From an uncultured Alphaproteobacteria bacterium (lineage in GTDB: Bacteria; Pseudomonadota; Alphaproteobacteria; Rhizobiales; Beijerinckiaceae), in NCBI GenBank assembly GCA_963820145.1, contig CAWFZD010000024.1, positions 36,216 to 100,215 of the forward strand: 64,000 nt of DNA, in the 5' to 3' direction. Made by a program: the position numbers and the translations under genes. This document shows positions 9,914 through 29,727 of the stretch, piece by piece. The notes below the pieces were generated by a model that did no database searches, had not been told where the DNA came from, and saw only the letters and a program-made list of their open reading frames with translations. Every line of letters begins with the position of its first letter. Position 1 is the stretch's first letter.

Positions 9914-9940
9914 GTGTAGAATAATAAGACGGCTAGATAT

Positions 9941-13999: not shown

Positions 14000-14011
14000 G
14001 CGAGTCCGTTG

Positions 14012-14885: not shown

Positions 14886-15051
14886 ATTTGTCTCCCATTC
14901 GGTTCGAGGCGTCAGATCTGGCGAAGGCCCTCGCAAGTGAATTTATATCATATGGCGTTGGTATGTTTCAATGCGGCAGATCGCGAGGGCCCGCAGACAT
15001 ATGTGTCTCACTCTATGCGCTCAGTGACGATCCAGCCAAAAAATATTGGAT

Positions 15052-15118
15052 GTAATACGATCTAATGAGTAGACATAGCGCGGCTGACACATTAATCTGA
15101 CCAAACAAGTAGGATTAA
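15052..15118. promoter_or_regulatory. Two candidate dyads in the divergent promoter of the DUF1549/DUF1553 operon
   Basis: GTAATACGAT-CTAATGA-GTAGACATAG (15052-15078) and TTAATCTGAC-CAAACAA-GTAGGATTAA (15092-15118; 8/10 palindromic). Confidence 0.55.
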
Positions 15119-15171
15119 AGCGAGGCGCGCCGGCAGGCGGCTCCCTCGCAAAGCCGCTGGGGTTTCAAATC

Positions 15172-17531
15172 ATGAGAAGGTCGATCAAACTCAGCTTCGC
15201 CGCCTTGTTGCTGAGCGTGTCGTCTGCAGCGCTCGCTGTCGCCGCCGATGTCGCGGCGCCTGTCGTCGTTGCGCCGCCCTCGTCGCAGTCCGCGCCCGCA
15301 GAGCCGGCGAAGGCGCCGTCGAAGCCGCTCTGGTCCTGGCAACCGGTCCAGGCGCCCGTAACGCCGACGATCGCCAATAAGGATTGGGTGCGGCAGCCGC
15401 TCGACGCTTTCGTGTTGGCCAAGATCGAAGCCAAAGGCCTCACTCCGTCACCGGATGCGGATCGCTCGACATTCATCCGTCGCGCGACGCTCGATGTTTG
15501 GGGACTGATCCCGACGCCCGAAGAGGTCGCGGCCTTCGAGGCCGACGACTCGCCCGATGCATACGAGAAGCTCGTCGACCGCCTGCTGGCTTCGCCGCGC
15601 TACGGCGAGCGGCAGGCGCGGTTGTGGCTCGATCTCGCGCGCTACGCCGACAGCGCCGGCTTTCAAAACGACAATACGCGGCCAAATTTCTTCCGCTATC
15701 GCGACTATGTGATCAAGGCCTTCAACGACGACAAGCCCTACTCGCGTTTCATTCAAGAGCAGATCGCCGGCGACGAACTCGCGCCCGGCGACCAAAGCGT
15801 ATTGGTCGCCACGGGATTCCTCGCCGGCTACCCCGACAACAGCAATTCGCGCGATCTCGTTCAGCGCAAATATCAGATCACGACCGATATGGTCGACACA
15901 TTGGGCCAGGCGGTTCTCGGCACGACGGTCGGATGCGCCCGCTGCCACAATCACAAGACCGACAAGTTTTCGCAGAAGGACTATTATTCGCTGCAGGCCT
16001 TCTTCGCCAACACCGCATTTGACGAAAAGGCCCCCGCCATCAAAGGCGAGCAGGAGCTTGCCTATGAGAAGGCGCAGGCGGTTTACGACGCAGCGACGAA
16101 AGAGATCCGCGAAAAGCAGAAGGCGATTATCGACAGCGTGCGCGACGCGGCGCTCAAATATCACAAGGAACGCTATCTCACCGACAGCCGCGAGTCGATC
16201 TTCAAACCGAAAGAGCAGTGGAACGCGCTCGACCGCTGGGTGAACCATCGCCTGGAGGCCGTGACCGACGACCCGGCGCTCGGCGCGTTCTTGCGCTACG
16301 CCGCGGAAGACGCTTCCGCGCCGGAGCACAGCGAAGAGATCAAGCAGAAATGGGCGGAGTATCAAAAGCTCACGCAAGAGCTGCGCAAATTCGCGGCTAA
16401 GAAGCCGGCGCGCGGCTCGGAAACGTTCACGACCGCCACCGAACTTGGTCATTCCGATTCGCCGCCGACTCATATTTTCTTCGGCGGCAATCACGAGCGT
16501 CCGCTGGATGAAGTGCAGCCCGCCTTTCCCGAGGCGATGACGAGTGAAAAGCCTGACATCAAGCCGACGGCGACCTCTTCGGGCCGTCGCACCGCGCTCG
16601 CCAATTGGCTCGTCAGCCCGACCAATCCGCTGACGGCGCGAGTCTTCGTCAACCGCATCTGGAACCAATATTTCGGCAAGGGCGTCGTCGCGACGGTCAG
16701 CGACTTCGGCAAGGCCGGCGACAAGCCGACGAACCAGGAGCTGCTCGATTTTCTCGCCGACCGTTTCGTTGCGGACGGCTGGGACGTGAAGAAGCTGCAT
16801 CGACAGATTCTCCTCTCGAGCGCCTATCGCCAGTCGTCCAACTATCGAGAAGACGCGGCCAAGGCGGATCCCGAGAACAAGCTCATCGCGGTGTTTCCGC
16901 GCAAGCGCCTCGAAGCGGAAGAAATTCGCGATTTAATCCTTGCGGCGTCCGGCAAGCTTTACGAGCAGGTCGGCGGTCCGAGCGTGTTTCCGCCGCTTCC
17001 GCCCAATCTTACGGGCGGCGGCACGTTCAATCAGGATCCCGCCTGGACCACGTCGAAGGATCCGAAGGATTACGTGCGGCGCAGCCTCTACACTTTCACA
17101 CGCCGCAGTCTGCCCTATCCATTGCTCGAGACCTTCGATATGGCGAATCCGCAGCAAATTCACAGCAAGCGCGACGTGACGACAACGCCCTTGCAGGCGC
17201 TGACGCTCGTCAACAGCGACATCGTCTTCGAATGGTCGCAGGCGCTCGCGGGCCGCGTTTTCAACGAGGCCGGCGCCGATGAATCGGCGCAACTCGATCG
17301 GCTCTATGAGATCTTGTTCGCGCGCAAGCCAACTGAGGACGAAAGGCAGATCCTGGAGGCCTTCCTCGCCCAGCATCAAAAGACTTCGCCGAGAAGGCCG
17401 AGGACGGAAAGCTCTCGCTCGCCGTTCCAGTGGGCGCGAAGACGAAGCCCGCCGATCCGTTGCGCGCCTCGGCCTTCGTCGATCTCGTCCACACCGTCGT
17501 GAACTCCAACGAGTTCGTCTACCGCTTTTGA
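15172..17531 (+). CDS. DUF1549 + DUF1553 (PSCyt2/PSD1) planctomycete-type exported protein; frameshift ~17380
   Basis: PLDAFVLAK, FIRRATLD..GL.PT.EE, LLASPRYGER.AR.WLDLARYADS, CARCHNHK, GRRTALANWL...NPLTARVFVNRIW, TTTPLQAL; C-terminus ...NSNEFVYRF* in shifted frame. Confidence 0.9.
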
Positions 17532-17554
17532 GCGATCAGCAAAGGATCAAGACC

Positions 17555-19009
17555 ATGCTCATCAAGACATCGCGTCGCGAATGGCTGCGCGGGGCCGTTT
17601 ATGGCGCCGGCGGATATGCGCTCGGCGGATTGTTGCCGGACGGCGGCTGGTTCGGCGTTCCGGAAGCGAGCGCCGCCAACTTCATCGATCCGCTGGCGCC
17701 GAAGGAGCCGCATTTCGCCCCGAAAGTGAAGTCGGTCATCTGGCTGCATATGGACGGCGCGCCTTCGACGCTCGACCTCTATGACTATAAGCCGGAACTC
17801 ATTCGCCTGGCCGGCCAGGACGTGCCGGACTCTTTCCTCAAGGGCATCAAGACCAGCACGCAAGGCGGCGTCGGCAAGCTCTTCGCTTCAAAGCGCACGT
17901 GGAAGCAATATGGCGAGAGCGGGGCGTGGTTTTCGGATTGGATGCCGAACCTTGCGCAGCACGCCGACAAGCTGACCTTCATCAAATCGAGCGTTACGGT
18001 CGGCGCGACGCATGACATCTCGATCTTGAAGCTCAACACCGGCGACGTGAGCCCGGGCCGGCCCTCGCTCGGCGCCTGGGTCTCCTATGCGCTGGGTTCC
18101 GCCAATCCGGACCTGCCGCCCTATGTCGTGCTCTATGGCGGCAAGCGCGAGCCGCGCGCGGGTTCGGTGAATTGGAGTTCGGGCTTTCTGCCCGCAGTCT
18201 ATCAAGGCACTGCATTTCGTCCGGGCGAACAGCCGATCCTCTATCAGGCGCCGCCCGAACTCGTCGGCCTGAAGCAGCAGCGCGAAAATCTCGACCTGTT
18301 GAAAAAGCTCAACGACATCGGCGGCGCGGCGCATCCAGGCGACAGCGAGCTTGCGGCGCGCACGCGCTCATACGATCTTGCCTATCGCATGGAGGCGACA
18401 GCGCCGGAAGCCGTCGATCTCTCCAAGGAGACCGAGGCGACCAAGGCGCTTTACGGCCTCAACGACGAGGCGACCAAGGACATGGGAACGGTGCTGCTGC
18501 GCGCGCGCCGTCTCGTCGAACGCAAGGTGCGTTTCATCCACGTGGTCTCCGGTCCGGTCAACAGTCAGGGGCAGGGCGACGACGCGAGCTGGGACGCGCA
18601 TCGCGCGCTCGAACAAAACCACGGCGCGCACACCAAGGCGATCGACAAGCCGGTCGCCGGCCTGCTGGCCGATCTGGCCTCGCGCGGACTTCTCGATCAG
18701 ACGCTCGTCGTATGGACCTCGGAGTTCGGTCGCACCTCTTACGGCCAGAGCGGCGACGGACGCGATCATAACCCCTGGGGCTATACGCAATGGCTCGCCG
18801 GCGGCGGCTTGAAACACGGCTTCACCTATGGCCAGACCGACGAGATCGGCCTGAAGACTGTGGAGAACCCCGTCGACACTTACGACGTGCATGCGACCGT
18901 GCTGAAGCTTCTCGGCCTCGATCACCTCAAGACGATCTACAAGCGCGCCGGTCGCGCGGAGCGGCCGACGGTCGTCTACGGCAAGGTTGTCGAGGAAATT
19001 CTGACCTAG
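17555..19009 (+). CDS. DUF1501 family protein, Tat-exported
   Basis: SRREWL twin-arginine signal; PLAPKEPHFAPKVKSVIWLHMDGAPS.LDLYDYKP, RPSLGAWVSYALGS, WDAH, SEFGRT, GRDHNP. Confidence 0.92.
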   Translation: MLIKTSRREWLRGAVYGAGGYALGGLLPDGGWFGVPEASAANFIDPLAPKEPHFAPKVKSVIWLHMDGAPSTLDLYDYKPELIRLAGQDVPDSFLKGIKTSTQGGVGKLFASKRTWKQYGESGAWFSDWMPNLAQHADKLTFIKSSVTVGATHDISILKLNTGDVSPGRPSLGAWVSYALGSANPDLPPYVVLYGGKREPRAGSVNWSSGFLPAVYQGTAFRPGEQPILYQAPPELVGLKQQRENLDLLKKLNDIGGAAHPGDSELAARTRSYDLAYRMEATAPEAVDLSKETEATKALYGLNDEATKDMGTVLLRARRLVERKVRFIHVVSGPVNSQGQGDDASWDAHRALEQNHGAHTKAIDKPVAGLLADLASRGLLDQTLVVWTSEFGRTSYGQSGDGRDHNPWGYTQWLAGGGLKHGFTYGQTDEIGLKTVENPVDTYDVHATVLKLLGLDHLKTIYKRAGRAERPTVVYGKVVEEILT

Positions 19010-19021
19010 GGCAGGCGACGC

Positions 19022-19363
19022 ATGAAGAAGCGCTTTCGCGCTTACGCGATGCTGGCGGCGCTCGCAGCCTGCATCGCATCGCTCGGCGCGAATGCCGAAA
19101 CGATGGCGCGGATCACGATCGAGAATTTCGCTTTTGATCCGCCGGCGCTCACGGTGAGAGTTGGGGATCGAATCGTCTTCCTCAATCGCGATCAGGTTCC
19201 GCATGCGGTCGTAGGCACGCGCTCGGGTTCGGAAATCTTCCGCTTGGGTGAGCAGCTCGACACGGACGAGACCTATTCCATCGTGGCGGACGCGCCGGGC
19301 GAGATCGCGCTCGGCTGCGGACTGCATGCCAGAATGATGGGAAAAATCACCGTGACGCCGTAA
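19022..19363 (+). CDS. Periplasmic cupredoxin (amicyanin/plastocyanin-like)
   Basis: Signal peptide; IENFAFDPPALTVRVGD, PH, CGLHARM type-1 Cu ligands. Confidence 0.85.
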   Translation: MKKRFRAYAMLAALAACIASLGANAETMARITIENFAFDPPALTVRVGDRIVFLNRDQVPHAVVGTRSGSEIFRLGEQLDTDETYSIVADAPGEIALGCGLHARMMGKITVTP

Positions 19364-19405
19364 GCGGCGCGCGCGTCGAGGACGCAGAAGGGATCGGGAA
19401 GGAAG

Positions 19406-19810
19406 ATGCGGGGTCGATGGCTAGCCTTTGTTTTGGCGCTGGAATTCATAGTGGGCGTCGCCCTCGCGGCGCCGGCGTTGGATTTTCGCGATTACGACAA
19501 TGATCTGATGCGCGATCTCGACAGGACCATCAAATATTTCGAGCCGGACATCGCGGGCGGCAACGCTGACGCTGCGAAAGAGGATCTCGATCAGCTCGCC
19601 GAGGGCTTTCGCTACACGCAAGATTATTTCTCCAAGAAGACCGGCGCCGACGACGCCGTGGAAATTTCGCGCAAAGGCGCCAAACTCGTCGCCGACGTGC
19701 GCGATCTGATCGAAAAGTCCGACTTCGACGCAGCCGCCGCCGCAGCGCGCGAAACGCCCGGCGTCTGCAAATCCTGCCACGATATCTACAAGCCGCGCCT
19801 TGCGCGCTAG
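19406..19810 (+). CDS. Periplasmic monoheme c-type cytochrome (class II-like, C-terminal CxxCH)
   Basis: Signal peptide; helical sequence; CKSCH near C-terminus. Confidence 0.75.
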   Translation: MRGRWLAFVLALEFIVGVALAAPALDFRDYDNDLMRDLDRTIKYFEPDIAGGNADAAKEDLDQLAEGFRYTQDYFSKKTGADDAVEISRKGAKLVADVRDLIEKSDFDAAAAAARETPGVCKSCHDIYKPRLAR

Positions 19811-19822
19811 GAGACCAAAAAT

Positions 19823-20713
19823 ATGACTCGCAAGACCGCTGCGGACTTCCATCCCGAGGTCCTGAAACTCTTCGATCTCTTCGTGCATGGCCTGCTCGAC
19901 CGGCGCGGCTTTCTCGACGGTGCGAAAAGATTCGCCGTAGGCGGCGTCGGCGCCGGAGCGCTGCTCGAAGCGCTGTCGCCGCGCTTCGCCGAGGCCGAGC
20001 AGGTGTCGAAGGACGATCCACGCATCAAGAGCCGCACCATCGAGGCGCCCTCGCCCGACGGCAATGGAACCGTGAAGGGCTATTTCGTCGAACCGGCCAA
20101 TCACTCGGGCAAACTGCCGACAATTCTCGTCATCCACGAAAACCGCGGACTCAATCCGCATATCGAAGATATTGCGCGCCGTCTCGCGTTGGCGAACTAC
20201 AACGCCTTCGCGCCCGACGCGCTCAGCTCCCTTGGCGGCTATCCCGGCGACGAGGACAAGGCGCGCGAGGCCTTTAAAAAACTCGACCAGACCAAGGCCC
20301 GCAATGATTTCATCGCCGCTCTGGGCTTCCTGAAAAAAAATCCGAGCGGCAATGGCAAGGTCGGCGCGGTCGGCTTCTGCTATGGCGGCGGGATCGTCAA
20401 TTTCCTTGCGACGAGGTCGCCCGATCTCGACGCGGGCGTTCCCTTCTACGGCGCTGCGCCGCCGCTGGAGGATGTCGCCAAGATCAAAGCGCCGCTGCTG
20501 TTGAACTTCGCCGGCAATGACGACCGCATCAACGCGACCTGGCCGCCCTATGAGGCGGCGTTGAAGGCCGCCAAGGTCGATTATCAGGCCTTCGTCTATC
20601 CTGGCGTGCAGCACGGTTTCAACAACGACACGACGCCGCGCTACGACGAAGCGGCGGCCAAGCTCGCCTGGAGTCGCACGCTCGACTTCTTCAACGCCCA
20701 CCTGCGCGGCTGA
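19823..20713 (+). CDS. Dienelactone hydrolase family protein, YghX-type
   Basis: DRRGFL, IHENRGLNPHIEDIARR, GFCYGG nucleophile, HGFNNDTTPRYD. Confidence 0.92.
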   Translation: MTRKTAADFHPEVLKLFDLFVHGLLDRRGFLDGAKRFAVGGVGAGALLEALSPRFAEAEQVSKDDPRIKSRTIEAPSPDGNGTVKGYFVEPANHSGKLPTILVIHENRGLNPHIEDIARRLALANYNAFAPDALSSLGGYPGDEDKAREAFKKLDQTKARNDFIAALGFLKKNPSGNGKVGAVGFCYGGGIVNFLATRSPDLDAGVPFYGAAPPLEDVAKIKAPLLLNFAGNDDRINATWPPYEAALKAAKVDYQAFVYPGVQHGFNNDTTPRYDEAAAKLAWSRTLDFFNAHLRG

Positions 20714-20741
20714 CCCCGCGCTTTACATCGAGAGCACAAAC

Positions 20742-21281
20742 ATGAAGACCGCTTCCTCTATTCTTGGCGCGCTCCTGGCGCTTCACGCCGGGTCGGCAGT
20801 CGCGCAACAGGCGCCCGCTCCGGTTCCGGCTGTGACGCCCGCTCCGGTCGCCGCCACGCCCGCAAACGATCCGGCCTACACTTACAAAACGCTGCGTCTC
20901 AATCGCGCCGCCTTCGACGCGCTGCTCGCGAGGCCGGAGCAGCTGCTCGTCATCGACGTGCGCCGCCCCGATGAGCTGACCAAGGTCGGCGGCTTTCCGG
21001 TTTATTTGAGCATTCAGACCGCCGACATTCAGAGAAGCCTCTCCTTCATTCCGCGCGATCGATTGATCGTCACTGTCTCAAATCGCGCGCATCGCGCCGG
21101 CGCGGTCGGCGACATTCTCGCCGGTCTGGGCTTCCATGTCGTGGGCGCGATCGGCGTGCTCGACTATCAGGACGAGGGCGGCGCGCTGACGAAGATCGCG
21201 CCGCCTCCGGCCCGCGCGGCGGCCGCGCCTGCGCCAGACCGCCAGTCGCAGACGGCGACGACCGTCAAGCAACAGCAGTAG
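20742..21281 (+). CDS. Periplasmic rhodanese-like protein lacking Cys
   Basis: Signal peptide; LLVIDVRRPDE; IVTVSNRAHRA at the active-site loop position. Confidence 0.75.
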   Translation: MKTASSILGALLALHAGSAVAQQAPAPVPAVTPAPVAATPANDPAYTYKTLRLNRAAFDALLARPEQLLVIDVRRPDELTKVGGFPVYLSIQTADIQRSLSFIPRDRLIVTVSNRAHRAGAVGDILAGLGFHVVGAIGVLDYQDEGGALTKIAPPPARAAAAPAPDRQSQTATTVKQQQ

Positions 21282-21298
21282 AAGCGGCGGGGCTGGTC

Positions 21299-21862: not shown

Positions 21863-21884
21863 CATTCAACGGAGATTGTGAAAG

Positions 21885-22397
21885 ATGCGAATGAAAAGAC
21901 TTCCGCGTCGCGCTGCGGGCGCCGGCGCAGTGATTGCGCTGGCGCTCATCGCCGCCGCGAACGCGCAAAACGCGCCCGCGCCAGCCGGCGGCGGCGCCGG
22001 ACCTTCGCCGGCGAAACTCGCGCTCGAGAACCGCAAGGCGGCCTATACGCTGATCGGCAACAGCTTCCGCTGGTTCGGCGCGGTGGCGAAGGGCAATGTC
22101 GCTTACGATGACGCGGAGGCTTCAAAGCGCGCGCAGCGCATCGCTTTCCTCTCCGCGCTGCCGGGCGAAAATTTTCCCGAGGGGTCGAATTTCCCCGAGC
22201 CGGAGAGCAAGGCGAAGCCGGACGTATGGAGCAATCGCGCCGACTTCGACAAGAAGCTGCATGACTTCCAGGAGCATGCCGCGCGTCTCGCCGAAGTCGT
22301 GGCCAAGGAGAAGGGCGCGACGGAGCCCTTCAAGGCGGCGGTCGTCGCTTTGGGCCAGGACTGCAAGGGCTGCCACGACACCTACAGAGTGAAATGA
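21885..22397 (+). CDS. Cytochrome c' / c556
   Basis: Signal peptide; FPEGS, SKAKPDVW, CKGCHDTYR. Confidence 0.88.
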   Translation: MRMKRLPRRAAGAGAVIALALIAAANAQNAPAPAGGGAGPSPAKLALENRKAAYTLIGNSFRWFGAVAKGNVAYDDAEASKRAQRIAFLSALPGENFPEGSNFPEPESKAKPDVWSNRADFDKKLHDFQEHAARLAEVVAKEKGATEPFKAAVVALGQDCKGCHDTYRVK

Positions 22398-22464
22398 GTC
22401 AGCACAGGGGGACGAGGCAGGCGCGTCGTCGCTCATCTCGCTCCCGCAACAGGAGCCGGAAGCC

Positions 22465-23208
22465 GTGACGACCATCGAAACTGACCGCATCGCGCAATCC
22501 GAAGCGCCCGCCAGGACCGCGCAACGACTCGTGTGGGATTGGCCGGTGCGGTTGTTTCACTGGTCGCTCGTCGTCTCGATCCTCGGCGCCTTCGTGACCA
22601 ACCGGCTCGGCGTCAAATATTTCGCGTATCATGTCTGGTTTGGCTATGCGGTGCTCGTGCTCGTGGTCTTTCGCGCGCTTTGGGGCGTGATGGGGCCGCG
22701 CCACGCGCGCTTCGCCAATTTCGTGCGCGGCCCCAAGGCCGTGCTCGGCTATGTCAGCGCTCTCGGACGCGGGCGGCGCACGCGCTACGCCGGCCACAAT
22801 CCGCTCGGCGCGCTCATGGTCGTGACGCTGCTGGCGCTCCTGGCGCTGCAGGCGGGCTTCGGCCTCTTCGCCGATGACGAAATATTCAACGCGGGACCGC
22901 TCGCGGGCCTCGTATCGAAGAGCGCCAGCCTCAACCTCACGTCGCTGCATCGAAAGATCTTCTATTGGATCGTCGCTTCGGTCGCTTTGCATGTCCTCGC
23001 CGTCGTCTGGCATATGCGCTTCAAAGGCGAGAATCTCGCGCTCGCCATGATCACCGGAAAAAAGCCCGCGCGTCTGGTGAGGCCGGGCGAAGCGATCGCC
23101 TCGTCGCGCAGTCGTTTGGCGATAGCGCTTTTCCTCGCGATCGTAGCGGGCGTCGCCTTTGCGCTGCAATTTGTTCCAGCGGCGGAGTCAGACGGCGCCG
23201 GCTTTTGA
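22465..23208 (+). CDS. Cytochrome b/b6-domain membrane protein (hydrogenase b-type)
   Basis: VWDWPVRLFHW, HVWFGY, GHNPLGA, LH...LHVLAV, AMITGKK. Confidence 0.9.
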   Translation: MTTIETDRIAQSEAPARTAQRLVWDWPVRLFHWSLVVSILGAFVTNRLGVKYFAYHVWFGYAVLVLVVFRALWGVMGPRHARFANFVRGPKAVLGYVSALGRGRRTRYAGHNPLGALMVVTLLALLALQAGFGLFADDEIFNAGPLAGLVSKSASLNLTSLHRKIFYWIVASVALHVLAVVWHMRFKGENLALAMITGKKPARLVRPGEAIASSRSRLAIALFLAIVAGVAFALQFVPAAESDGAGF

Positions 23209-23355
23209 CAATTCATTTTCGTGGATTTCCAGATTCGAACTCCGCCTCCAACCGCGATAACAATTAACCATACTCACTAACTATATATGTTGCATATGGG
23301 CAACAGTCCTAGAAATCCGGACAAAATCGAACTTTTGAAAGCTTGACGTCAATCA

Positions 23356-23382
23356 TAAATCATACTTAGTTAGTAGATATAA
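23356..23382. promoter_or_regulatory. Candidate dyad overlapping the TBDR promoter
   Basis: TAAATCATAC-TTAGTTA-GTAGATATAA, just downstream of TTGACG (23343-23348). Confidence 0.55.
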
Positions 23383-23421
23383 GATTAACAAACGCCGGCC
23401 ATGCGTTATGGGGGTTCAAAG

Positions 23422-25962
23422 ATGAGGCGTTCGACATTTGCGTTTCGCGAAAGGCTCATGCGCAGCACGCAGTTCGCATCCTTCGCCATACTGGGTACGG
23501 GCGCGCTGGCTGCGCCTTTGGCTTTGGCGCAGACCGTGCCGCCGCCGCCGGCCGCGCAACCCGCGCCTACGCCTCAACCCGCAACCGGGCCGGCGAGTGC
23601 GGAAGTAGAGGAGGTCAAGGTCACCTCGCGCCTGCGCGAGGAGAAGGCTCAGGACGTGCCGCTGCCGGTCAGCGTCGTTGGCGGCAAGACCGCCGACCGA
23701 GAGCATATCGAGCGCCTGCAGGACTTTGCGGAAAAGGTGCCGAACTTCGTGCCCTACACCACCAACCCGCGCACCTCGGCCATCGCGATCCGAGGCATCA
23801 CCGGCATCTCGGGCGGCGCCGACGGCTCCGAGTCGGCGACGGGCTTTATCGTCGACAATGTGTTCTTCACTCATGTCGGCTTCCAATGGGCCGATTATGT
23901 CGACCTGCAGTCGCTCGAGGTCGCGCGCGGCCCGCAAGGCACGCTGCTGGGCAAGAACACGACGGTCGGCGCAGTGGTGATCCACACGCAAGCGCCGTCC
24001 TTCACGCCCTCGGCGACGTTGGAGTCCTCCTTCGGCAATTACAATCGCTTCATTGAAAAGCTGAATGTGACGGGACCGATCATTCCCGACAGGGTAGCCG
24101 GCCGATTCACGTTGTTCCTCGATAAGGGCGACGGCTGGATTCATGATGCGGTCACCGGCGCCGGTCTTCTGGACAATAATCGCTGGGGCGCGCGCGGTCA
24201 GCTTCTCTTCACTTTCGACGATTTCACCGACCGCGTGATCTTCGACCGGCTTCGGTCCGACGAGTACAACAACTACGGCGCGCCCGCTTACAACAGCTTC
24301 CCGTTCTACGCCAATGGCGCGCTGGCGACCTCGTTTTCATCCAATCTCGCGAACCGCCTGCACTGGCCGCTGCTCGGCCTTGATCCCTATTCGCCGGAGC
24401 TGAGCGACCTGCGCAATCTCGACCAGCGCACGACCGGCCTCTCGAACGAATTCAACAAGCCGATCGGCGACAACGTCTTCACCTCCGTCGCAGCCTGGCG
24501 CGAGTTCACGCTGCATCCAAACAACACCGGCTCCACGACCACGGGCGGCACGGTCGGTCAGGACACCTTCATCGAATCGACCGGATTCGATACTTACGTC
24601 GATCAATATTCGTTCGAGAACCGGCTCGCCTCGCCCAAGGACGTGCCCTTGGAGTGGACCGTCGGGACCTATTTCCTGCGCGAGGTCGTCAATTCGCACG
24701 ACCGCGAAACCTACGGGCCTCAAGCAGCGCAGTGGTTCTTGAACAGTTTTGCGGCCAATCCAGCGGTGCTGAACGGCTCCACGAGCCATCAGGACGGTAT
24801 CGCCCGCACCTTCAGCGCCGCCGCCTTCGCCCAGACCTCATGGCACATCGACGACAAGTGGACGCTCACCACGGGGTTGCGCAACACTTATGAAATCCGC
24901 GAGGGTTCCGACTTCGGCTGGATCAACGGCAACACCACCGCCGCTGGCATCGGCGCCGCGAACACGGCGCAGGGCTACAGCTTCTTCGATACGGGTGGGC
25001 AGACCACGCGCACCAACTCGATTTCGGGCCTCATCAACCCGTCCTATCGATTTAGCGAGAACGTGCTCGCCTACGGCTCGGTCGCCAGGGGCGAAAAGTC
25101 CGGCGCGATCAACACGAACGCGTTGCCGCTGCTCGATAGCGCCGGCAATTTCAAAGGGTTTCAGCCGGTCATCACCAAGCCCGAAGTCTCATGGGACTAC
25201 GAGCTCGGCGTCAAGACCAACTGGTTCGACAACAAGCTCATCGTCAACGCCAATCTGTTCTGGAACGACATTTACGACTTCCAGGCGATTCTGGTGGACA
25301 CGTCGATCCTCGACGTGACCGGCGTGCCGATACGCAAAACCTATCTCGGCAACATCCCCCAGGTCCGCTCGCGCGGCTTCGAGTTCGACACACGGTGGAG
25401 CCCGCTGGAGCGGCTGTGGATCACCTTCAACGGTCAGGCGACGGATTTCCGTTACGTCAGCTATCCGCAGGCGGCGCCGCCTGCCGACTGGACCTGGCCC
25501 GCTTCCGCCAACATCAAAGGCGTCGCCGCGCCGCTCTACGTCAATCTTTCGGGTCAGCGCGTCACCTCCGGCGTCAACGGCAACGCTCCGTTCTCGCCTT
25601 ATTCCTTCAACCTCGGCGCCAATTACGAATATCCGCTTGGTCCGGTCTTGAGACCCTATGGCCTGCCGCAATCCATCTCGATGTTTGGCTACGGCAACCT
25701 GACCTGGAGATACAAGAGCCAGTTGTCCGAGCCCTATTCCCTCTATTACCTGCAACAGCCGTCCTATTCCCTGATCAACGCCGGCCTCGGCTTCAAGACC
25801 GACGACGAGAAATACAGCTTCAATCTCTGGGTCAAGAATCTCGCCGACTCCCGCTATCTCATCGCAGCGACCATCGGCAGCCCCACCGCGCCCGGAAACA
25901 TCACCTTCGGCGAAAACAATCCGCGCACCTTCGGCGCAACTCTTCGTGTGAAGCTCTACTGA
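23422..25962 (+). CDS. TonB-dependent receptor (alternative start 23401)
   Basis: EEVKVTSRLREEKAQDVP TonB box region; LEVARGPQGTLLGKNTTVGAV; WVKNLAD...PRTFGATLRVKLY. Confidence 0.93.
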   Translation: MRRSTFAFRERLMRSTQFASFAILGTGALAAPLALAQTVPPPPAAQPAPTPQPATGPASAEVEEVKVTSRLREEKAQDVPLPVSVVGGKTADREHIERLQDFAEKVPNFVPYTTNPRTSAIAIRGITGISGGADGSESATGFIVDNVFFTHVGFQWADYVDLQSLEVARGPQGTLLGKNTTVGAVVIHTQAPSFTPSATLESSFGNYNRFIEKLNVTGPIIPDRVAGRFTLFLDKGDGWIHDAVTGAGLLDNNRWGARGQLLFTFDDFTDRVIFDRLRSDEYNNYGAPAYNSFPFYANGALATSFSSNLANRLHWPLLGLDPYSPELSDLRNLDQRTTGLSNEFNKPIGDNVFTSVAAWREFTLHPNNTGSTTTGGTVGQDTFIESTGFDTYVDQYSFENRLASPKDVPLEWTVGTYFLREVVNSHDRETYGPQAAQWFLNSFAANPAVLNGSTSHQDGIARTFSAAAFAQTSWHIDDKWTLTTGLRNTYEIREGSDFGWINGNTTAAGIGAANTAQGYSFFDTGGQTTRTNSISGLINPSYRFSENVLAYGSVARGEKSGAINTNALPLLDSAGNFKGFQPVITKPEVSWDYELGVKTNWFDNKLIVNANLFWNDIYDFQAILVDTSILDVTGVPIRKTYLGNIPQVRSRGFEFDTRWSPLERLWITFNGQATDFRYVSYPQAAPPADWTWPASANIKGVAAPLYVNLSGQRVTSGVNGNAPFSPYSFNLGANYEYPLGPVLRPYGLPQSISMFGYGNLTWRYKSQLSEPYSLYYLQQPSYSLINAGLGFKTDDEKYSFNLWVKNLADSRYLIAATIGSPTAPGNITFGENNPRTFGATLRVKLY

Positions 25963-26093
25963 TCGGACGGAAGTCATTGACTTCCGTTCCCGCGCGGACC
26001 CGAGCTCCTCCCCCTCGGGTCCGCCACCCATCAAACCAGGCGCCAGGCGCGTTGCGCGTGCGTGAGTTTCGACAACAGCTAAGGGGTCCCCGA

Positions 26094-26930
26094 GTGAAAA
26101 AAGTTCTGCTACCCGTCGCAACGGCGCTCCTCGCTCTCGCAGCGACGACGGCCCTCTCCGCCGACCTCCCGTCCCGAAAGGAAGCCCCGGTGGTTCCGCC
26201 TCCGCCGCCGCCGTGGACGGGCTTCTACCTCGGCGTCAACGCCGGCTATTTCTGGACGAGCGAGAACCAGATCACCCAAAGCTATTCCGACACTTTGCCG
26301 GGCGGCTTCTTAACCCACGCCTTGGTCGGGAGTATCCCGGTTCAAGTGTCGGTCCCCAACCACGGCTTCATCGGCGGCGGCCAGGTTGGCTTCAACTATC
26401 AGTTGGAGAACCGCTTCGTCCTTGGCCTTGAAGCGGACATCCAGGGGCTGACCGGGAATGACGGGACCATCAGTGTCATCAGCGGTCCCTCGGCGACCTC
26501 GTTTTCACGCGGATTGCAGCAGATCGGCGCCATTCGCGCCCGCGTCGGCTATGTGCTGACGCCCCAACTTCTGATTTACGGCACGGGCGGCTTCGCTTAT
26601 GGCCAGGCAAATTTGACCGCCAACTATTTCGGCGCGTGGTCTTCTGCGCTGCAGGGCGTCGACAATGAGACTCGAACGCTCGGAGGATTCGCGCTCGGCG
26701 CGGGCGCAGAGTGGCTTGTCCTGCCGAACTGGGGCGTCAAGGCGGAATATCTTTATTACGACCTCGGCTCGCTCAACACGAGTGGAACGCAATTTTCTTA
26801 CAAGTCCGGAGGCGTCGCGGCGATATCCACGGCTCAATCGAGTTCGCGCTTCAACGGCAACATCGTGCGCGTCGGCCTCAATTATCACGTCAATTGGGCC
26901 GGACCGCCTGCGCTCTTCGCCAATCACTGA
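26094..26930 (+). CDS. Outer-membrane beta-barrel protein, Omp25/RopB-like
   Basis: GTG start; ADLPSRKEAP-PPPP-WTGFYLGVNAG...AEYLYYDLG...VRVGLNYH. Confidence 0.9.
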   Translation: MKKVLLPVATALLALAATTALSADLPSRKEAPVVPPPPPPWTGFYLGVNAGYFWTSENQITQSYSDTLPGGFLTHALVGSIPVQVSVPNHGFIGGGQVGFNYQLENRFVLGLEADIQGLTGNDGTISVISGPSATSFSRGLQQIGAIRARVGYVLTPQLLIYGTGGFAYGQANLTANYFGAWSSALQGVDNETRTLGGFALGAGAEWLVLPNWGVKAEYLYYDLGSLNTSGTQFSYKSGGVAAISTAQSSSRFNGNIVRVGLNYHVNWAGPPALFANH

Positions 26931-27013
26931 CTTTTCAGTCGATCGTCGCCTCGGGTTTTTTAAAAACGCGAATAGGCCAGAGACATTTAAAAAAAAACCG
27001 GATGACTTCAGCC

Positions 27014-27040
27014 ATAATCATATTGCGTCTATGGGATTAG
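27014..27040. promoter_or_regulatory. Candidate dyad upstream of tonB-exbBD
   Basis: ATAATCATAT-TGCGTCT-ATGGGATTAG. Confidence 0.5.
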
Positions 27041-27088
27041 TGGTGTTAGTTTGCTTTTGTGACAACCATCGGGAAAGGCGCTTTAGAG

Positions 27089-27898
27089 ATGTCCTTAGCT
27101 GCTGCGCCAAGAGCGGCGTCCGCTTACGCGAAAGCCGAGCGCCTGTATCACGACAAAGCGTCTGGCGCGCAGTCGTTGCTGCATGTCGCGCCGCCCCCGC
27201 CCGACTATCCGGCCCGCACCGGCGCCATCCTTCTCTATTTCCTGCTGCTCGCGCTTTTCGTCACCGTCGGCTTCAAAAACAACGACACGCCGATTGAAGA
27301 GGAGCAGGTCGTCGAACTCGCGCCGATGCCGGTCGAAGAGCAGCCGGTCGAAGACACGCCGCCCCCGCCTGAAGCGATGGCGATTCCGGACATTCCGCCG
27401 CCTCCGGCTTTCGATCCGATCGCCCCGGTCGAAGAGGTGAAGCCGGTGGAGAAGCCCAAGATCGAGAAACCGAAGGTCGAGAAGCCCAAGCTCGAAAAAC
27501 CGAAGGCGCCGACGCGCGCACAAACGCCGAGCGCTCCCGCGCGTCCTTCCAGGCAACCCGCGCATCCGGCCGCAGCCGCAAAACCCGCGCCGCATGTCGC
27601 CGCGCCCGCCGTGCATGCGCCGCCAGCTCCTGCTGGAGCCACGATCTCTGCGGCCGCAAACGCTTACCATGCGTGTTTGCAGCGCGCCGCCGGGAGCATG
27701 GAGCCGCCGGTCGGCGGTCGCGTCACCTACCACGCCACGGTCAGCGCGACGGGAGCGGTCACCTCGTTTTCGATCACTTCTTCCAGCAATCCCTCCCTCG
27801 CATCTCTCGCTCAACGTCTCGGCGGTCGCTGCGGCTCCGTGCCGGCGCCAGGACGTCCGGGTTCGCTCTCGGGCGGAATCAGCTTCTCTGGTCCCTGA
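27089..27898 (+). CDS. tonB: TonB-like energy transducer
   Basis: Single N-terminal TM, Pro-rich linker with EKPK repeats, C-terminal domain (ATGAVTSFSITSSSNPSL); precedes exbB/exbD. Confidence 0.7.
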   Translation: MSLAAAPRAASAYAKAERLYHDKASGAQSLLHVAPPPPDYPARTGAILLYFLLLALFVTVGFKNNDTPIEEEQVVELAPMPVEEQPVEDTPPPPEAMAIPDIPPPPAFDPIAPVEEVKPVEKPKIEKPKVEKPKLEKPKAPTRAQTPSAPARPSRQPAHPAAAAKPAPHVAAPAVHAPPAPAGATISAAANAYHACLQRAAGSMEPPVGGRVTYHATVSATGAVTSFSITSSSNPSLASLAQRLGGRCGSVPAPGRPGSLSGGISFSGP

Positions 27899-27939
27899 TC
27901 ATTTTCCTTCCTCGTTCGCAAAACTGAAAGGCGCTACAC

Positions 27940-28680
27940 ATGGTTGACACGGCTACCACCGCCTCGGCGGCGCTGGCGCATACGCTGACGCCCGTCGAGC
28001 TTTTCCTGCAGGCGGACTCGATCGTCAAAACGGTGATCGTGCTGCTGATCCTCGCCGCGGCCTGGGGCCTTGGCGTCACTGCCGAGAAGTTGATTCGCCT
28101 CGGCGTGCTGCATCGCCGCGCGGCGCGCCTTTTCGACAGCATCCAGGAAGGTCTTCCCGTCTCCCACCTTGCCGAGAGCTTCGCTTCCGCGCCGAAGAAC
28201 GATCCTCTCGTGCGCGTCTACACATCCATGGTCGAGGAATACGAGCGCTCCCTCGACTTGACCCAGAGCGAATCGCAGCGCAATTCCCTCCAGGAGCGCG
28301 TGCATCGCGTCGCCCAGCTCGCCAGCTCCGCCGCGATCGAACATCTGCAGTCGCGCCTGCCTGGCCTCGCCACGATCGGCGCCGTTGCGCCTTTCGTCGG
28401 CCTCTTCGGCACGGTCTGGGGCATCATGAACTCCTTCCAGGGCATCGCCGCCTCCAACAACACCAGCCTCGCCGTCGTCGCGCCCGGCATCGCGGAAGCG
28501 CTGTTCGCGACGGCGCTCGGCCTCGTCGCGGCGATTCCCGCCGTCATTTTCTACAACCGCATCAGCGGCGACATCGGCGCCTACGCCAAGCGCCTGACGT
28601 CCTTCATCGGCGTGTTCGAGGTCGAACTGTCTCGCCAACTGTCCAAGAGAGGAGATCGCAATGGCCTTCGCGCTGCGTAA
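27940..28680 (+). CDS. exbB: MotA/TolQ/ExbB proton channel protein
   Basis: LATIGAVAPFVGLFGTVWGIMNSF...VAPGIAEALFATALGL. Confidence 0.9.
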   Translation: MVDTATTASAALAHTLTPVELFLQADSIVKTVIVLLILAAAWGLGVTAEKLIRLGVLHRRAARLFDSIQEGLPVSHLAESFASAPKNDPLVRVYTSMVEEYERSLDLTQSESQRNSLQERVHRVAQLASSAAIEHLQSRLPGLATIGAVAPFVGLFGTVWGIMNSFQGIAASNNTSLAVVAPGIAEALFATALGLVAAIPAVIFYNRISGDIGAYAKRLTSFIGVFEVELSRQLSKRGDRNGLRAA

Positions 28681-29111
28681 GAGTGATTCCGAATTCGAAC
28701 TCGGGCCCCATCGCCGACATCAACGTCACGCCGCTCGTCGATGTGATGCTCGTGCTGCTCATCGTCTTCATGGTGGCCGCGCCCCTGATGACGGCGGGCG
28801 TGCCCGTCGATCTGCCTAAGACGCAGGCGAAGCAGCTCAACGATCAGCAACCGCCGATCGTGGTCAGCGTCGACGCCGATGGAAGCTTCTTCGTCGACAA
28901 GCGCGAAGCGAGCGGGACCGAGGGACTGCTCGCGGTGCTGCAGGAGAGCAGCGAGAACAACAAGGACCGCCGCGTGCATGTGCGCGCCGACAAGGCGGTC
29001 GCCTACGGCAAGGTGGCTGAGGCCATGGGCGTCATCAACGCCGCCGGCTACGTCAAGGTGGCGCTGGTTTCCGAATCTGCTGGCGGCGGCAGGACGACGG
29101 CCCGCCGCTGA
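28661..29111 (+). CDS. exbD: ExbD/TolR protein; likely true start ATG 28661 with a frameshift in the C-run ~28707
   Basis: INVTPLVDVMLVLLIVFMVAAP, VRADKAVAYG; GAGAGGAG RBS precedes out-of-frame ATG 28661 (MAFALRKSDSEFELGP). Confidence 0.88.
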
Positions 29112-29292
29112 AAACGGACCGGCTTCGAGATTGAGCGGGTCCGAAAGTCCATGAAAATTCAGCCACGGCCGGCTCCCGCTGGCCGTGGCGGGTTTCCGAT
29201 ATGACATATCGCAAATGCAGCTTTAGAATGCCCCGCCACGAACGCCGCACGGACAGACGCAGGCGTCGGAAAAGCGGGGAGTTTCCTCATTC

Positions 29293-29727
29293 ATGTTGTC
29301 GAATAAAGCCAAATACGGCCTTAAAGCCCTGATGCATCTGGCCGGGAGCGAGGACCAGTGCCTCGCCGGCGATATTTCCAGGGACAACAACATTCCAAGA
29401 AAATTCCTCGACGCGATTCTGGTGGAGTTGCGCAACGCTGGCATTCTCAATAGCCGCAAAGGCAAGGGCGGCGGCTACCGTCTGGCGCGGCCGGCGGAAA
29501 AAATCACGGTCGGTCAAATCATCCGCATTCTCGACGGCCCGCTCGCGCCAATTCCCTGCGCGAGCAAGACCGCATATCAGCGCTGCGCCGACTGCCCCGA
29601 CGAAGACGCCTGCGCGATCCATGACATCATGCTCGACGTGCGCGTCTCGATCGCGCTCATCCTCGATCGCACGAGCATCGCCTCATTACGAAATCGTGGA
29701 CATAGAGAGAGCCAATTGCTGAGATGA
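29293..29727 (+). CDS. Rrf2 family transcriptional regulator (paralog of 13552-13999)
   Basis: MLSNKAKYGLKALMHLA, IPRKFLDAIL, GKGGGYRLAR, PCASKTAYQRCADC...C. Confidence 0.93.
   Translation: MLSNKAKYGLKALMHLAGSEDQCLAGDISRDNNIPRKFLDAILVELRNAGILNSRKGKGGGYRLARPAEKITVGQIIRILDGPLAPIPCASKTAYQRCADCPDEDACAIHDIMLDVRVSIALILDRTSIASLRNRGHRESQLLR

Follow-up and report, generated by a model that had tools for sequence, protein, structure and literature searches.

A Methylocystis methanotroph carries a 15-gene import and processing block that we take, with slightly more confidence than doubt, to be a TonB-powered sulfur-scavenging system within a sulfur-limitation island. The block fills positions 15172-29727 of the window (the whole 64,000-nt stretch of DNA analysed), and all fifteen of its co-directional + strand genes are present, in the order and at the coordinates given below with two regulatory regions. 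The sulfur-scavenging reading follows from three independent lines: (i) the near-absence of Cys and Met from the block's proteins; (ii) sulfur genes, among them sulfate-uptake genes, that repeatedly adjoin its core; (iii) a minimal cassette on a Methylosinus plasmid. Judged from sequence, sulfur scavenging for sulfur-poor habitats is the most likely role.

15040..15125, +, conserved PSD1 operon promoter region (alignment of 18 Methylocystis/Methylosinus upstream regions)
15172..17531, +, PSCyt2/PSD1 (DUF1549/DUF1553) haem-motif protein (Pfam PSCyt2 282 bits, PSD1 319 bits)
17555..19009, +, Tat-exported DUF1501 protein (Pfam 436 bits)
19022..19363, +, exported cupredoxin (Cupredoxin_1 38 bits)
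19406..19810, +, small four-helix class II c-type cytochrome (Cytochrom_C_2 24.9 bits, just below the 26.5 cut-off)
19823..20713, +, Tat-exported dienelactone-hydrolase-family (DLH) esterase, YghX-like (DLH 168 bits)
20742..21281, +, exported rhodanese-homology protein, 179 aa
21299..21862, +, periplasmic PrxQ/BCP-type peroxiredoxin (AhpC-TSA 96 bits)
21885..22397, +, cytochrome c' (PF01322 109 bits)
22465..23208, +, membrane cytochrome b561 (Ni_hydr_CYTB family, 82 bits)
23260..23400, +, receptor upstream region with AATC[AC]TAC-type operator half-sites (motif census)
23401..25962, +, TonB-dependent receptor (plug and barrel)
26094..26930, +, OmpA-like small outer-membrane barrel (OMP_b-brl 53 bits)
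27059..27898, +, TonB-like protein with membrane anchor
27940..28680, +, ExbB (MotA_ExbB 117 bits)
28683..29111, +, ExbD (103 bits)
29293..29727, +, Rrf2-family regulator with four Cys (89, 98, 101, 107) (Rrf2 118 bits)

The sequence-only reading had described nine tightly spaced co-directional genes followed by a receptor, a porin, TonB-ExbB-ExbD and an Rrf2 gene, a layout confirmed by Pfam matches and by intergenic gaps of 12-67 nt among the first nine genes. Gaps of about 190, 130 and 130 nt lie ahead of the receptor, barrel and TonB genes, respectively. The supposed porin is indeed an outer-membrane barrel but of the small OmpA-like type, with a GTG start at 26094, a signal peptide and no Cys or Met past the start. 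The TonB call is upheld by its conserved position ahead of ExbB-ExbD and a Pro-rich linker, though the TonB_C match is weak (E 0.038).

Five complete genomes from this genus show synteny over the entire block. Its gene arrangement is far beyond chance, and the block is a conserved unit kept whole in Methylocystis. Within the genus, about 11 of the 24 genomes carry the block gene used for searching; a search of 16 other families of the order found it in none. Elsewhere the core is found in Alpha-, Beta- and Gammaproteobacteria and a few other MAGs at 60-90% identity. Scanning a single genome for each species gave 338 stretches encoding relatives; the best 80 of these (69-90% identical; Alpha-, Beta- and Gammaproteobacteria with Verrucomicrobiaceae and Bryobacteraceae MAGs) are the loci over which partners were counted. 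Among 400 genomes sampled evenly across the phylum there was no relative at E 1e-100, and the block is thus a rare, horizontally spread accessory system. Across the 80 loci the partners are PSD1 (76), the small cytochrome c (69, always directly after DUF1501), peroxiredoxin (64), cytochrome c' (56), a TonB-dependent receptor (54), cytochrome b561 (53), the rhodanese-like protein (51), DLH (40), a class-I cytochrome c (30) and an SGL lactonase (13). The receptors adjoining PSD1-DUF1501 are not orthologous between lineages (23-75% identity).

Cys and Met make up 1.18% of the block, where the genome averages 3.27%; in a rough collection of exported proteins the median is 2.36% and the 5th percentile 0.69%. 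The abundant structural proteins of the block are made almost without these residues: PSD1 0.7%, DUF1501 0.8%, DLH 0.3%, the receptor 0.4%, ExbB 0.8%, and none in the rhodanese-like protein or the outer-membrane barrel. DUF1501 orthologues of at least 70% identity hold 0.2-1.6% (median 0.7%) versus 1.6-5.9% (median 3.4%) in the nearest other representatives (at most 53% identity). Family-conserved Cys and Met columns are substituted; a Cys present in 84% of the DUF1501 family, for example, is Leu here. In PSD1 orthologues the CxxCH cysteines are the only Cys retained (76 of 77). Known sulfur-starvation proteins at the same loci are likewise depleted (Sbp 0, SsuA-like 0.3%, arylsulfotransferase 0.45%). 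A within-genome paralogue control in a Bryobacteraceae MAG gave a modest difference (1.9% versus 2.6-3.1%). In the window the run of sulfur-poor genes begins at about 3 kb and stops at 29 kb.

In unrelated bacteria the core travels with genes for sulfate uptake, sulfonate uptake and sulfate-ester use. Adjoining genes encode SulP, Sbp (NCBIfam 553 bits; 5 loci), arylsulfotransferase (5 loci), an S1 sulfatase with CxPxR (3 loci), an SsuA-like ABC set with a porin (3 loci) and the serine acetyltransferase-encapsulin-desulfurase set (18 loci, one of them Methylococcales). On Methylosinus sporium plasmid pUOS2_II a divergent receptor gene is followed by PSD1-DUF1501-Sbp-SulP, with Sbp and SulP overlapping. 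The encapsulin operon is up about 10-fold under sulfur starvation in A. baumannii and is also induced in S. elongatus (PMC10836720). The flank of the block in the window is as follows.

317..3032, -, second TonB-dependent receptor (TonB_dep_Rec_b-barrel 108 bits, Plug 82 bits), two ORFs in the present assembly (barrel 317-1303, plug within 1188-3032)
3001..3999, -, outer-membrane beta-barrel protein (OMP_b-brl 37 bits; 0.6% Cys+Met), left edge of the sulfur-poor island
5759..7222, +, YeiH-like membrane protein (PF03601; 0.6% Cys+Met)
7459..8406, -, serine acetyltransferase-like protein with hexapeptide repeats (Hexapep 33 bits, weak SATase_N match)
8522..9016, -, exported HbpS-like (GlcG/DUF336) protein (PF03928 107 bits; beside the core at 26 of the 80 loci)
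9245..9913, +, XRE-type HTH and cupin regulator (HTH_3, Cupin_2; 26 of 80 loci)
10029..11126, +, family 2A encapsulin shell, SrpI-like (PF19307 354 bits; orthologues 88-96% identical)
11198..13409, +, cysteine desulfurase, cargo of the encapsulin (Aminotran_5 404 bits, from the 3' ORF)
13552..13999, +, Rrf2-family regulator belonging to the encapsulin set
14009..14389, +, ArsR-family regulator (best curated match BigR, 88 bits, below the cut-off of 155)
14403..14936, -, sulfur-poor cupin protein, divergent from PSD1 (21 of 80 loci)

The encapsulin and desulfurase expected in this flank are there, but neither the desulfurase (frameshifted near 12306-12346 by tblastn; one ORF of about 740 aa in relatives) nor its neighbouring Rrf2 gene (frameshifted near 13664-13671) is intact in the present assembly. 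The acetyltransferase-like gene belongs to this set and adjoins SrpI in relatives (cluster c28); it lies at 7459-8406 and not at 9245-9913, the XRE-HTH/cupin gene.

PSD1 carries a Sec signal and just one CxxCH, at residue 255. The domains and haem motif first read from the sequence stand, but the reading frame does not: a 1-nt deletion lies near 17376-17385, and the last ~50 codons, which are conserved and predicted to form the DUF1501-docking helices, continue out of frame as far as 17531. Should the deletion be genuine, the present copy may be inactive. DUF1501 starts at 17555 (the longest ORF began at 17279), bears the Tat motif SRREWL and is without Cys once mature. Its model (pLDDT 90) has a predicted alkaline-phosphatase/sulfatase-superfamily fold, closest to PafA (Z 20.2, rmsd 4.4, 283 residues aligned), then NPPs (Z about 19) and S1 sulfatases (Z about 18); the fit to phosphatases and phosphodiesterases is no worse than that to sulfatases. 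A classical sulfatase is ruled out because DUF1501 has neither cysteine nor the C/S-x-P-x-R formylglycine motif. We regard it as the putative catalytic subunit.

The suggested PSD1:DUF1501 complex was modelled with ipSAE 0.72 (best of 3 controls 0.00). Of solved complexes 58 of 80 reach this mark, as do 2 of 110 mismatched pairs; these counts apply only roughly, because custom alignments were used. At least 51% of contacts agree between runs and partner pLDDT is at least 84. Neither family has a relative by sequence in the PDB and no like complex has been solved, so the pass does not reflect a solved structure already known to the predictor. The model supports a predicted specific heterodimer.

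The cupredoxin has the type-1 copper ligand pattern (H61/C99/H102/M105-106) and is an addition confined to Methylocystis loci, 11 of the 80. The small cytochrome has CxxCH at its C-terminus. The esterase has a YqhI-like N-terminus and a Tat motif, and scores 412 bits against NF041440, under the cut-off of 460. The peroxiredoxin carries PxxxTxxC, with Cys73 and Cys113. The rhodanese-like call holds for the fold (atlas 0.95; PDB profile E 5e-6) but not for the catalytic Cys, whose position is taken by Ser113, an invariant Ser113-Asn-x-Ala-x-Arg replacing the Cys loop. The whole family is Cys-free, and a role as persulfide carrier is ruled out because there is no cysteine.

We propose that the receptor, powered by its own TonB-ExbB-ExbD, takes in a scarce sulfur-bearing organic compound, the leading candidates being sulfate esters (for instance sulfated sugars, or the aryl or alkyl sulfates of natural organic matter). 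A precedent is the TonB-dependent receptor SftP of P. putida S-313, which functions in the use of sulfate esters (PMC7711191). In the periplasm, DUF1501 would act as a formylglycine-free metal enzyme, its helical insert gripped by PSD1's C-terminal helices, and would free the sulfur in the form of sulfate or some related oxyanion. The esterase, whose place a lactonase takes in other lineages, would clear the organic product, the peroxiredoxin would remove peroxide and the rhodanese-like protein may bind the anion; sulfate uptake would then proceed via Sbp/SulP or CysPTWA-type transporters. The PSD1 haem, small cytochromes, cupredoxin and cytochrome b561 could serve a release-coupled redox step or electron disposal; by way of cytochrome b561, electrons would then travel between the quinone pool and the cytochromes or cupredoxin. 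Haem would be superfluous for a purely hydrolytic release of sulfate, whereas as many as five redox proteins are conserved alongside PSD1-DUF1501, so the chemistry may differ from this proposal. The core of the original inference, receptor-mediated import and periplasmic release of sulfur, draws support from the depletion, the linkage, the plasmid cassette and the predicted complex. The proposal gives a functional context to the long-unexplained exported PSD1-DUF1501 pair.

From composition and linkage only, the operon would be expected to be induced by sulfur limitation. The PSD1 promoter has a TAGACA-type -35 and a TATTAAT-type -10 element flanked by CCTA / TAGG half-sites, including TAGGATTAA at 15110. 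AATC[AC]TAC-type half-sites are common to the PSD1, receptor and TonB upstream regions, and AATCCTA / TAGGATT-type sites precede PSD1 in 7 of 18 loci, the receptor in 10 of 13 Methylocystis-type loci and TonB in 7 of 12. The block's Rrf2 protein, whose top curated matches (CymR, IscR) all fall under cut-off, is the candidate repressor of these three transcription units and probably acts at the common AATCCTA...TAGGATT sites. Upstream of the encapsulin genes this operator motif seldom occurs, so that the encapsulin set and the block may not share one regulator.

The fifteen plus-strand genes at 15172-29727 are best read as a sulfur-starvation system. A scarce organic sulfur compound would be imported through a dedicated TonB-dependent gate, its sulfur would be freed in the periplasm by an enzyme formed by the PSCyt2/PSD1 (DUF1549/DUF1553) and DUF1501 proteins at the head of the block, and the sulfate would be handed to uptake systems. 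Few unexplained families are as expanded in Planctomycetes, Verrucomicrobia and Acidobacteria as DUF1549/DUF1553 and DUF1501, and the function of the PSD1-DUF1501 gene pair has been unassigned since its description in 2012. The gene content of the block, from Pfam and motif checks, is as follows.

Genes of the block from PSD1 to Rrf2, in order
15172-17531, plus strand: PSCyt2/PSD1 protein (PF07583, 282.5 bits; PF07587, 319.4 bits), Sec signal, one CxxCH (CARCH, residue 255)
True start 17555, plus strand: DUF1501 (PF07394), 435.8 bits over profile positions 2-390 of 390
Directly after DUF1501, plus strand: cupredoxin with the ligand pattern of type-1 copper
Plus strand: small four-helix c-type cytochrome, 134 aa (PF01322, 24.9 bits, below the 26.5 cut-off)
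Plus strand: dienelactone-hydrolase-family esterase (DLH Pfam, 168 bits), Tat signal
Plus strand: exported rhodanese-homology protein, 179 aa, no Pfam hit
Plus strand: periplasmic PrxQ-type peroxiredoxin (AhpC-TSA, 96 bits)
Plus strand: cytochrome c' (PF01322, 108.6 bits), C-terminal CKGCH at residue 160
After cytochrome c', plus strand: cytochrome b561
After cytochrome b561, plus strand: TonB-dependent receptor
GTG start 26094, plus strand: OmpA-like barrel
End of block, plus strand: TonB-like protein, ExbB, ExbD and Rrf2 regulator

The first nine genes are spaced 12-67 nt apart. Both domains of the PSCyt2/PSD1 protein reside in one exported chain, and the CxxCH, a haem motif by sequence, lies inside PSCyt2. 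DUF1501 carries a twin-arginine signal (SRREWL, residues 6-11) with the RR motif present in 71 of 81 orthologs. Two names given in the sequence-only reading need qualification. Its YghX hydrolase does belong to the DLH family but scores below the curated YghX cut-off (NF041440; 411.9 against 460 bits). Its rhodanese-like protein does have the rhodanese fold (atlas score 0.95; E 5e-6 for a 31-ortholog profile against solved structures) but lacks the catalytic Cys; an invariant Ser113 sits in the active-site loop and none of 51 orthologs has a Cys in the mature part. The peroxiredoxin possesses Cys73 in a PxxxTxxC motif, a conserved Cys113 some 40 residues on and a conserved signal peptide, and its matches to curated equivalogs are all below cut-off.

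The block is syntenic in five complete Methylocystis genomes, one of which has a second copy consisting only of PSD1, DUF1501 and the receptor. Within the genus the gene occurs in about 11 of 24 genomes; it was found in none of the 16 other families of the order searched and in none of 400 evenly drawn genomes of the phylum at E 1e-100. A scan with one genome per species identified 338 stretches encoding a relative, the best 80 of which are 69-90% identical. Alphaproteobacterial carriers among these best 80 of 338 are Methylocystis, Methylosinus, Methylocapsa, Methylocella, Beijerinckia and Rhodoblastus; the others are Methylobacillus, Oxalobacteraceae and other Burkholderiales, Methylococcales, Solimonas/Hydrocarboniphaga and Cellvibrionaceae, together with a few Verrucomicrobiaceae and Bryobacteraceae MAGs. 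Their habitats are mainly freshwater, peat and soil. The system is rare, accessory and horizontally spread. Partners were counted by clustering all ORFs of the best 80 loci, and since the partner set recurs across them, the block is one version of a widespread module.

Partners at the best 80 of 338 loci (loci with the partner)
PSD1: 76/80
Small cytochrome c, invariably right after DUF1501: 69/80
Peroxiredoxin: 64/80
Cytochrome c': 56/80
TonB-dependent receptor: 54/80
Cytochrome b561: 53/80
Ser-type rhodanese-like protein: 51/80
Esterase (DLH): 40/80
ExbB: 30/80
Class-I cytochrome c, missing from the window: 30/80
Metallo-beta-lactamase-fold protein: 15/80
SMP-30-type lactonase: 13/80
Cupredoxin, Methylocystis only: 11/80
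CHRD protein: 8/80
PepSY_TM protein: 7/80

At some loci of Ideonella and Oxalobacteraceae (L085, L089, L098 and L103) the genes for CcmE, CcmF, CcmG and CcmH lie directly 3' of the module; adjoining cytochrome c maturation genes are consistent with its load of c-type haem proteins. Uptake of methanobactin/copper or of lanthanides, an idea prompted by the methanotroph and methylotroph carriers, was rejected, as carriers of the core also include Duganella, Cellvibrio, Solimonas and others, and the cupredoxin is limited to one lineage.

A low content of Cys and Met is a known trait of proteins made under sulfur starvation. Cys+Met makes up 1.18% of the cluster proteins, compared with 3.27% for the genome on average. 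Seven of them (PSD1, DUF1501, esterase, rhodanese-like protein, receptor, barrel and ExbB) rank no higher than the 3rd percentile of the genome, nor above roughly the 5th percentile when set against a crude collection of exported proteins. The sulfur-poor island is continuous in the window from ~3000 to 29700, with Cys+Met below about 1.2%, and takes in a second outer-membrane barrel, a YeiH-like protein, an acetyltransferase, an HbpS-like protein and a cupin; normal composition (2-7%) returns from 30.4 kb (30453 onwards). Depletion extends to the cytoplasmic acetyltransferase (1.0%), the inner-membrane YeiH-like protein and ExbB. DUF1501 relatives of at least 70% identity have 0.2-1.6% Cys+Met (median 0.7%) against 1.6-5.9% (median 3.4%) in the next representatives, which are at most 53% identical, and sulfur amino acids are 4-5 times scarcer in the clade than elsewhere in the DUF1501 family. 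Columns that are mostly Cys or Met across the family are Thr, Ser or Leu here. Both CxxCH cysteines are retained in 76 of 77 PSD1 orthologs, which argues that the haem site is needed. Sbp, the SsuA-like binding protein and the arylsulfotransferase from the best 80 of 338 loci are equally depleted, and the regulators are not. As paralog controls, a Verrucomicrobiaceae MAG has just two PSD1 genes, both sulfur-poor, and in a Bryobacteraceae MAG the contrast is modest. Compared with both proteome and paralogs, the cluster has the composition of a sulfur-economised protein set. Depletion of Cys+Met in a clade relative to its own family offers a general flag for sulfur-starvation genes that needs no expression data.

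The linkage to sulfur genes on which the sequence-only reading had relied recurs in unrelated lineages. This evidence can be set out as (i) the sulfate-binding protein Sbp (553 bits against a cut-off of 288) beside the core in a Verrucomicrobiaceae MAG, a Steroidobacteraceae MAG, two Oxalobacteraceae and a Methylosinus plasmid; (ii) arylsulfotransferase beside the core in Verrucomicrobiaceae, Cellvibrio and Methylococcales; (iii) true S1 sulfatases with the formylglycine motif (CxPxR/CxAxR) in Cellvibrio and Steroidobacteraceae; (iv) an SsuA-like ABC transporter with a porin in three Burkholderiales; and (v) the family 2A encapsulin set of acetyltransferase, SrpI shell and cysteine desulfurase, which adjoins the core in 18 of the best 80 of 338 loci (Methylocystis/Methylosinus, Methylocapsa, Rhodoblastus, other Hyphomicrobiales and one Methylococcales MAG). 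The encapsulin operon is raised about 10-fold under sulfur starvation in A. baumannii and is also induced in S. elongatus (PMC10836720). This set, at 7459-13409 in the window, works apart in the cytoplasm under Rrf2 and ArsR regulators of its own, and it rarely bears the operator motif of the PSD1 cluster.

A mobile form of the module is found on the Methylosinus sporium plasmid pUOS2_II (L056:4748-14613), where a five-gene unit lies directly beside repABC. After a divergent receptor gene come PSD1 and DUF1501 and then two overlapping genes, for Sbp and a SulP-family sulfate permease; antioxidant genes are absent from this cassette. Nothing hints more clearly than this plasmid at sulfate, or a compound handled in the same way, as the product of the pair.

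The DUF1501 model (pLDDT 90) has the alkaline-phosphatase superfamily fold, with PafA, the NPP phosphodiesterases and the S1 sulfatases tied at Z 18-20 over 240-280 aligned residues (several S1 sulfatases at Z ~18, rmsd 3.5-3.9, about 250 residues) and Foldseek values of E 1e-8 to 1e-6 against the superfamily. With neither the C/S-x-P-x-R formylglycine motif nor any Cys in its mature form, DUF1501 does not count as a classical sulfatase. At sequence level the only stretch to align is its strand-loop TSEFGR, with sulfatase TSDNGG; profile-profile comparison with S1 sulfatases covers only 38 columns at a probability of 55%. The family-invariant residues H153, D347, H349, E390, R403 and H405 match neither the S1 nor the PafA/NPP ligand pattern by sequence. 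D347, H349 and H405 could constitute one metal site, and the second zinc site of the PafA/NPP ligand set is not recognisable in the DUF1501 sequence. DUF1501 differs from the S1 sulfatases, PafA and NPPs by a large helical insert (residues ~214-290), where the predicted interface with PSD1 lies. The model of the whole PSD1 protein is all-helical (pTM 0.85). Foldseek returned no solved relative for it (best E 0.29), and the best match of a wide VIA search (Z 6.9) is to a coiled-coil hairpin only.

A DUF1501-PSD1 complex had been singled out beforehand for structure prediction, and the prediction came out in its favour. With intact orthologs from one Methylocystis locus, the pair reached an ipSAE of 0.72, the best control 0.00. 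Of 80 solved complexes 58 reach the ipSAE mark, as do 2 of 110 mismatched pairs; both counts apply only approximately here, since the prediction used our own alignments. Contact agreement between runs was at least 51% and partner pLDDT at least 84. In the model the helical insert of DUF1501 (~214-280) contacts the C-terminal helices of PSD1, of which the invariant last 16 residues are part, and as a prediction it supports binding of the two proteins to each other.

In the present assembly a frameshift takes away exactly the C-terminal PSD1 segment of this predicted interface. Single-nucleotide frameshifts affect three genes within 6 kb (desulfurase 12306-12346, the Rrf2 gene upstream of the block 13664-13671, PSD1 17376-17385), the PSD1 frame running on to 17531 in another frame, and an upstream TonB-dependent receptor (317-3032) is split across two frames. 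The same genes are intact in relatives. The source genome is a MAG, 68% complete in 150 contigs, and the lesions reflect either assembly error or genuine decay of the island.

PSCyt/PSD1 and DUF1501 modules are known from Planctomycetes, Verrucomicrobia and Lentisphaerae in work that left their function open (Kamneva et al. 2012, PMC3542564; He et al. 2017, PMC5615132), and sulfatase genes near PSCyt genes have been noted (He et al., PMC5615132). Our search of the literature on DUF1501 and on DUF1549/DUF1553/PSCyt2 found no function given and no paper treating DUF1501 with DUF1553; nothing relevant was found on sulfur starvation in methanotrophs. As in those modules, a large Sec-exported PSCyt2(CxxCH)-PSD1 protein is encoded directly upstream of a DUF1501 with a Tat signal. 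Unlike them, the proteobacterial genomes have a single pair, without PSCyt1, carbohydrate-binding or WD40 modules. Cytochromes, a peroxiredoxin, the rhodanese-like protein and an esterase are its fixed companions, and it also comes with a TonB uptake set and a link to sulfate uptake genes. In the ats-sft system AtsK is a 2-oxoglutarate dioxygenase and AtsA a formylglycine sulfatase, whereas the candidate enzyme here is a pair of a haem protein and DUF1501. The TonB-dependent receptor of that system, SftP, serves sulfate-ester sulfur in P. putida S-313 under sulfur limitation (PMC7711191). The receptor of the block would be like SftP in having an organosulfur role, a likeness of proposed role with no claim of homology. 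Sox (the SoxAX haem protein and the Tat-exported metallohydrolase SoxB) and SorAB are periplasmic pairings of a haem protein with a Tat metalloenzyme that yield sulfate. By analogy alone, the c-type haem protein and Tat-exported enzyme of the block may resemble them; there is no sequence or fold relationship, and the block has no SoxYZ-like carrier.

Inverted AATCCTA/TAGGATT-type sites are common to 15040-15125, 23260-23400 and 26990-27050, the regions that precede PSD1, the receptor and TonB. Methylocystis and Methylosinus both retain these sites, which in Methylocystis-type loci flank or overlap a conserved sigma-70-like promoter, and the CC-N13-GG spacing of the sites is reminiscent of Rrf2 (IscR type 2) operators. 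From the shared sites and this spacing, the Rrf2 protein of the cluster is the likely candidate repressor. It passes the Rrf2 superfamily model (104.6 against 73.3 bits) and misses the subfamily cut-offs (CymR 70.7/195, IscR 64/208, RirA 52/193, NsrR 45/182 bits). Encapsulin genes seldom carry the operator motif, and k-mer censuses found no motif common to the PSD1-cluster and encapsulin promoters; TAGGATTAA, upstream of the desulfurase gene, occurs in this window only. A consensus scan was uninformative: it found 4 promoter-like sites where 2.7 were expected, and 23 terminator-like sites where 16 were. No locus has a sigma-54 promoter upstream of PSD1. The only good sigma-54 match precedes a sulfatase gene in L068, and a sigma-54 activator without a receiver domain is encoded at 13 of the best 80 of 338 loci, in Beta- and Gammaproteobacteria (for example L091:15465-16640).

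Sulfate esters lead among the substrate candidates on four grounds: the fold of DUF1501, the presence of sulfatase and arylsulfotransferase genes nearby, the Sbp-SulP cassette, and esterases or lactonases that could clear an organic product. The weak point of sulfur release is the conserved redox escort: simple hydrolysis needs no haem, yet the escort is conserved, so redox-coupled release or another substrate class is possible. Tentatively, we would go further and suggest that PSD1:DUF1501 may be a new class of periplasmic sulfur-releasing enzyme, in which a formylglycine-independent member of the alkaline-phosphatase superfamily, bound to a haem protein, frees sulfate. On that view the paralogous pairs that Planctomycetes and Verrucomicrobia have by the dozen would each be specific to a substrate, with the same chemistry directed at sulfated glycans, and the proteobacterial clade would be a sulfur-cheap version used solely to obtain sulfur.

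The block could belong to a sulfur-starvation regulon without releasing sulfur, as a sulfur-cheap periplasmic redox or antioxidant module for thiol-short cells, with the receptor importing some other compound and the pair acting elsewhere in the envelope. No sulfur gene is more tightly conserved with the pair than the redox proteins and the peroxiredoxin, the sulfur-poor composition would fit equally well, and antioxidant defences are reportedly induced by sulfur starvation in P. aeruginosa (PMC12581299). We consider this arrangement unlikely, given that the plasmid cassette contains the receptor, PSD1, DUF1501, Sbp and SulP alone, that sulfatase, arylsulfotransferase and SsuA-like sets directly adjoin the pair in other lineages and that the DUF1501 fold is that of a hydrolase. 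Scarcity of Cys and Met might instead reflect resistance to oxidation, were the block a defence against periplasmic oxidants or nitric oxide. Gene sets of cytochrome c', cytochrome b561, peroxiredoxin and a Cys-rich Rrf2 (here with a sub-cut-off NsrR match, E 1e-11) do resemble those for nitrosative or oxidative stress. Such a role would leave no place for the Sbp-SulP linkage, and the depletion of the cytoplasmic acetyltransferase, YeiH-like protein, ExbB, Sbp and SsuA-like protein also makes it improbable.

Acquisition of iron, haem or another metal, through the receptor, TonB-ExbBD, an Fe-S-type Rrf2, the HbpS-like protein and cytochrome b561/PepSY_TM reductases, seems more improbable still. 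The best curated matches of the receptor are siderophore and haem subfamilies, far below cut-off; HbpS-like, PepSY_TM and cytochrome b proteins recur among the best 80 of 338 loci, and many carriers are methanotrophs, which need copper. Sulfur-poor proteins would not be expected under iron starvation, however; no siderophore, haem-oxygenase or metal ABC genes recur in those 80 loci, whereas sulfate and sulfonate uptake genes do, and the cupredoxin is restricted to Methylocystis. Scavenging of phosphate esters is barely credible, even with PafA (Z 20.2) and NPPs (Z ~19) at the head of the structural list and Porin_O_P, a phosphate-type porin, at 3 of the best 80 of 338 loci. The sulfatases trail by no more than 2 Z units, pst and pho genes do not recur, the adjoining binding protein is a sulfate binder followed by SulP, and the depletion indicates limitation by sulfur, not phosphorus.

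Sulfur starvation as the setting of the block gives the proteobacterial clade a concrete hypothesis, namely release of sulfate for assimilation, which is cheaply testable because there is one copy per genome, carriers are in culture and a five-gene plasmid cassette exists. Bacteria of low-sulfate freshwater, peat and soil, major methane oxidisers included, would have a dedicated, horizontally spread, putative system for mining organic sulfur, and this bears on sulfur limitation of wetland methane oxidation.

Some loci depart from the common arrangement. Methylobacillus gramineus (L062:7518-16200) has a tandem of two PSD1-DUF1501 pairs followed by the small cytochrome and the peroxiredoxin, and Methylobacillus loci have an RND efflux set just upstream whose adaptor and outer-membrane factor are sulfur-poor. 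The source genome itself encodes a distant second DUF1501-like protein (L002, contig C53:27663-31478; Pfam E 4e-33), which has a normal sulfur content of 2.6%, with another ExbD paralog a few kb away.
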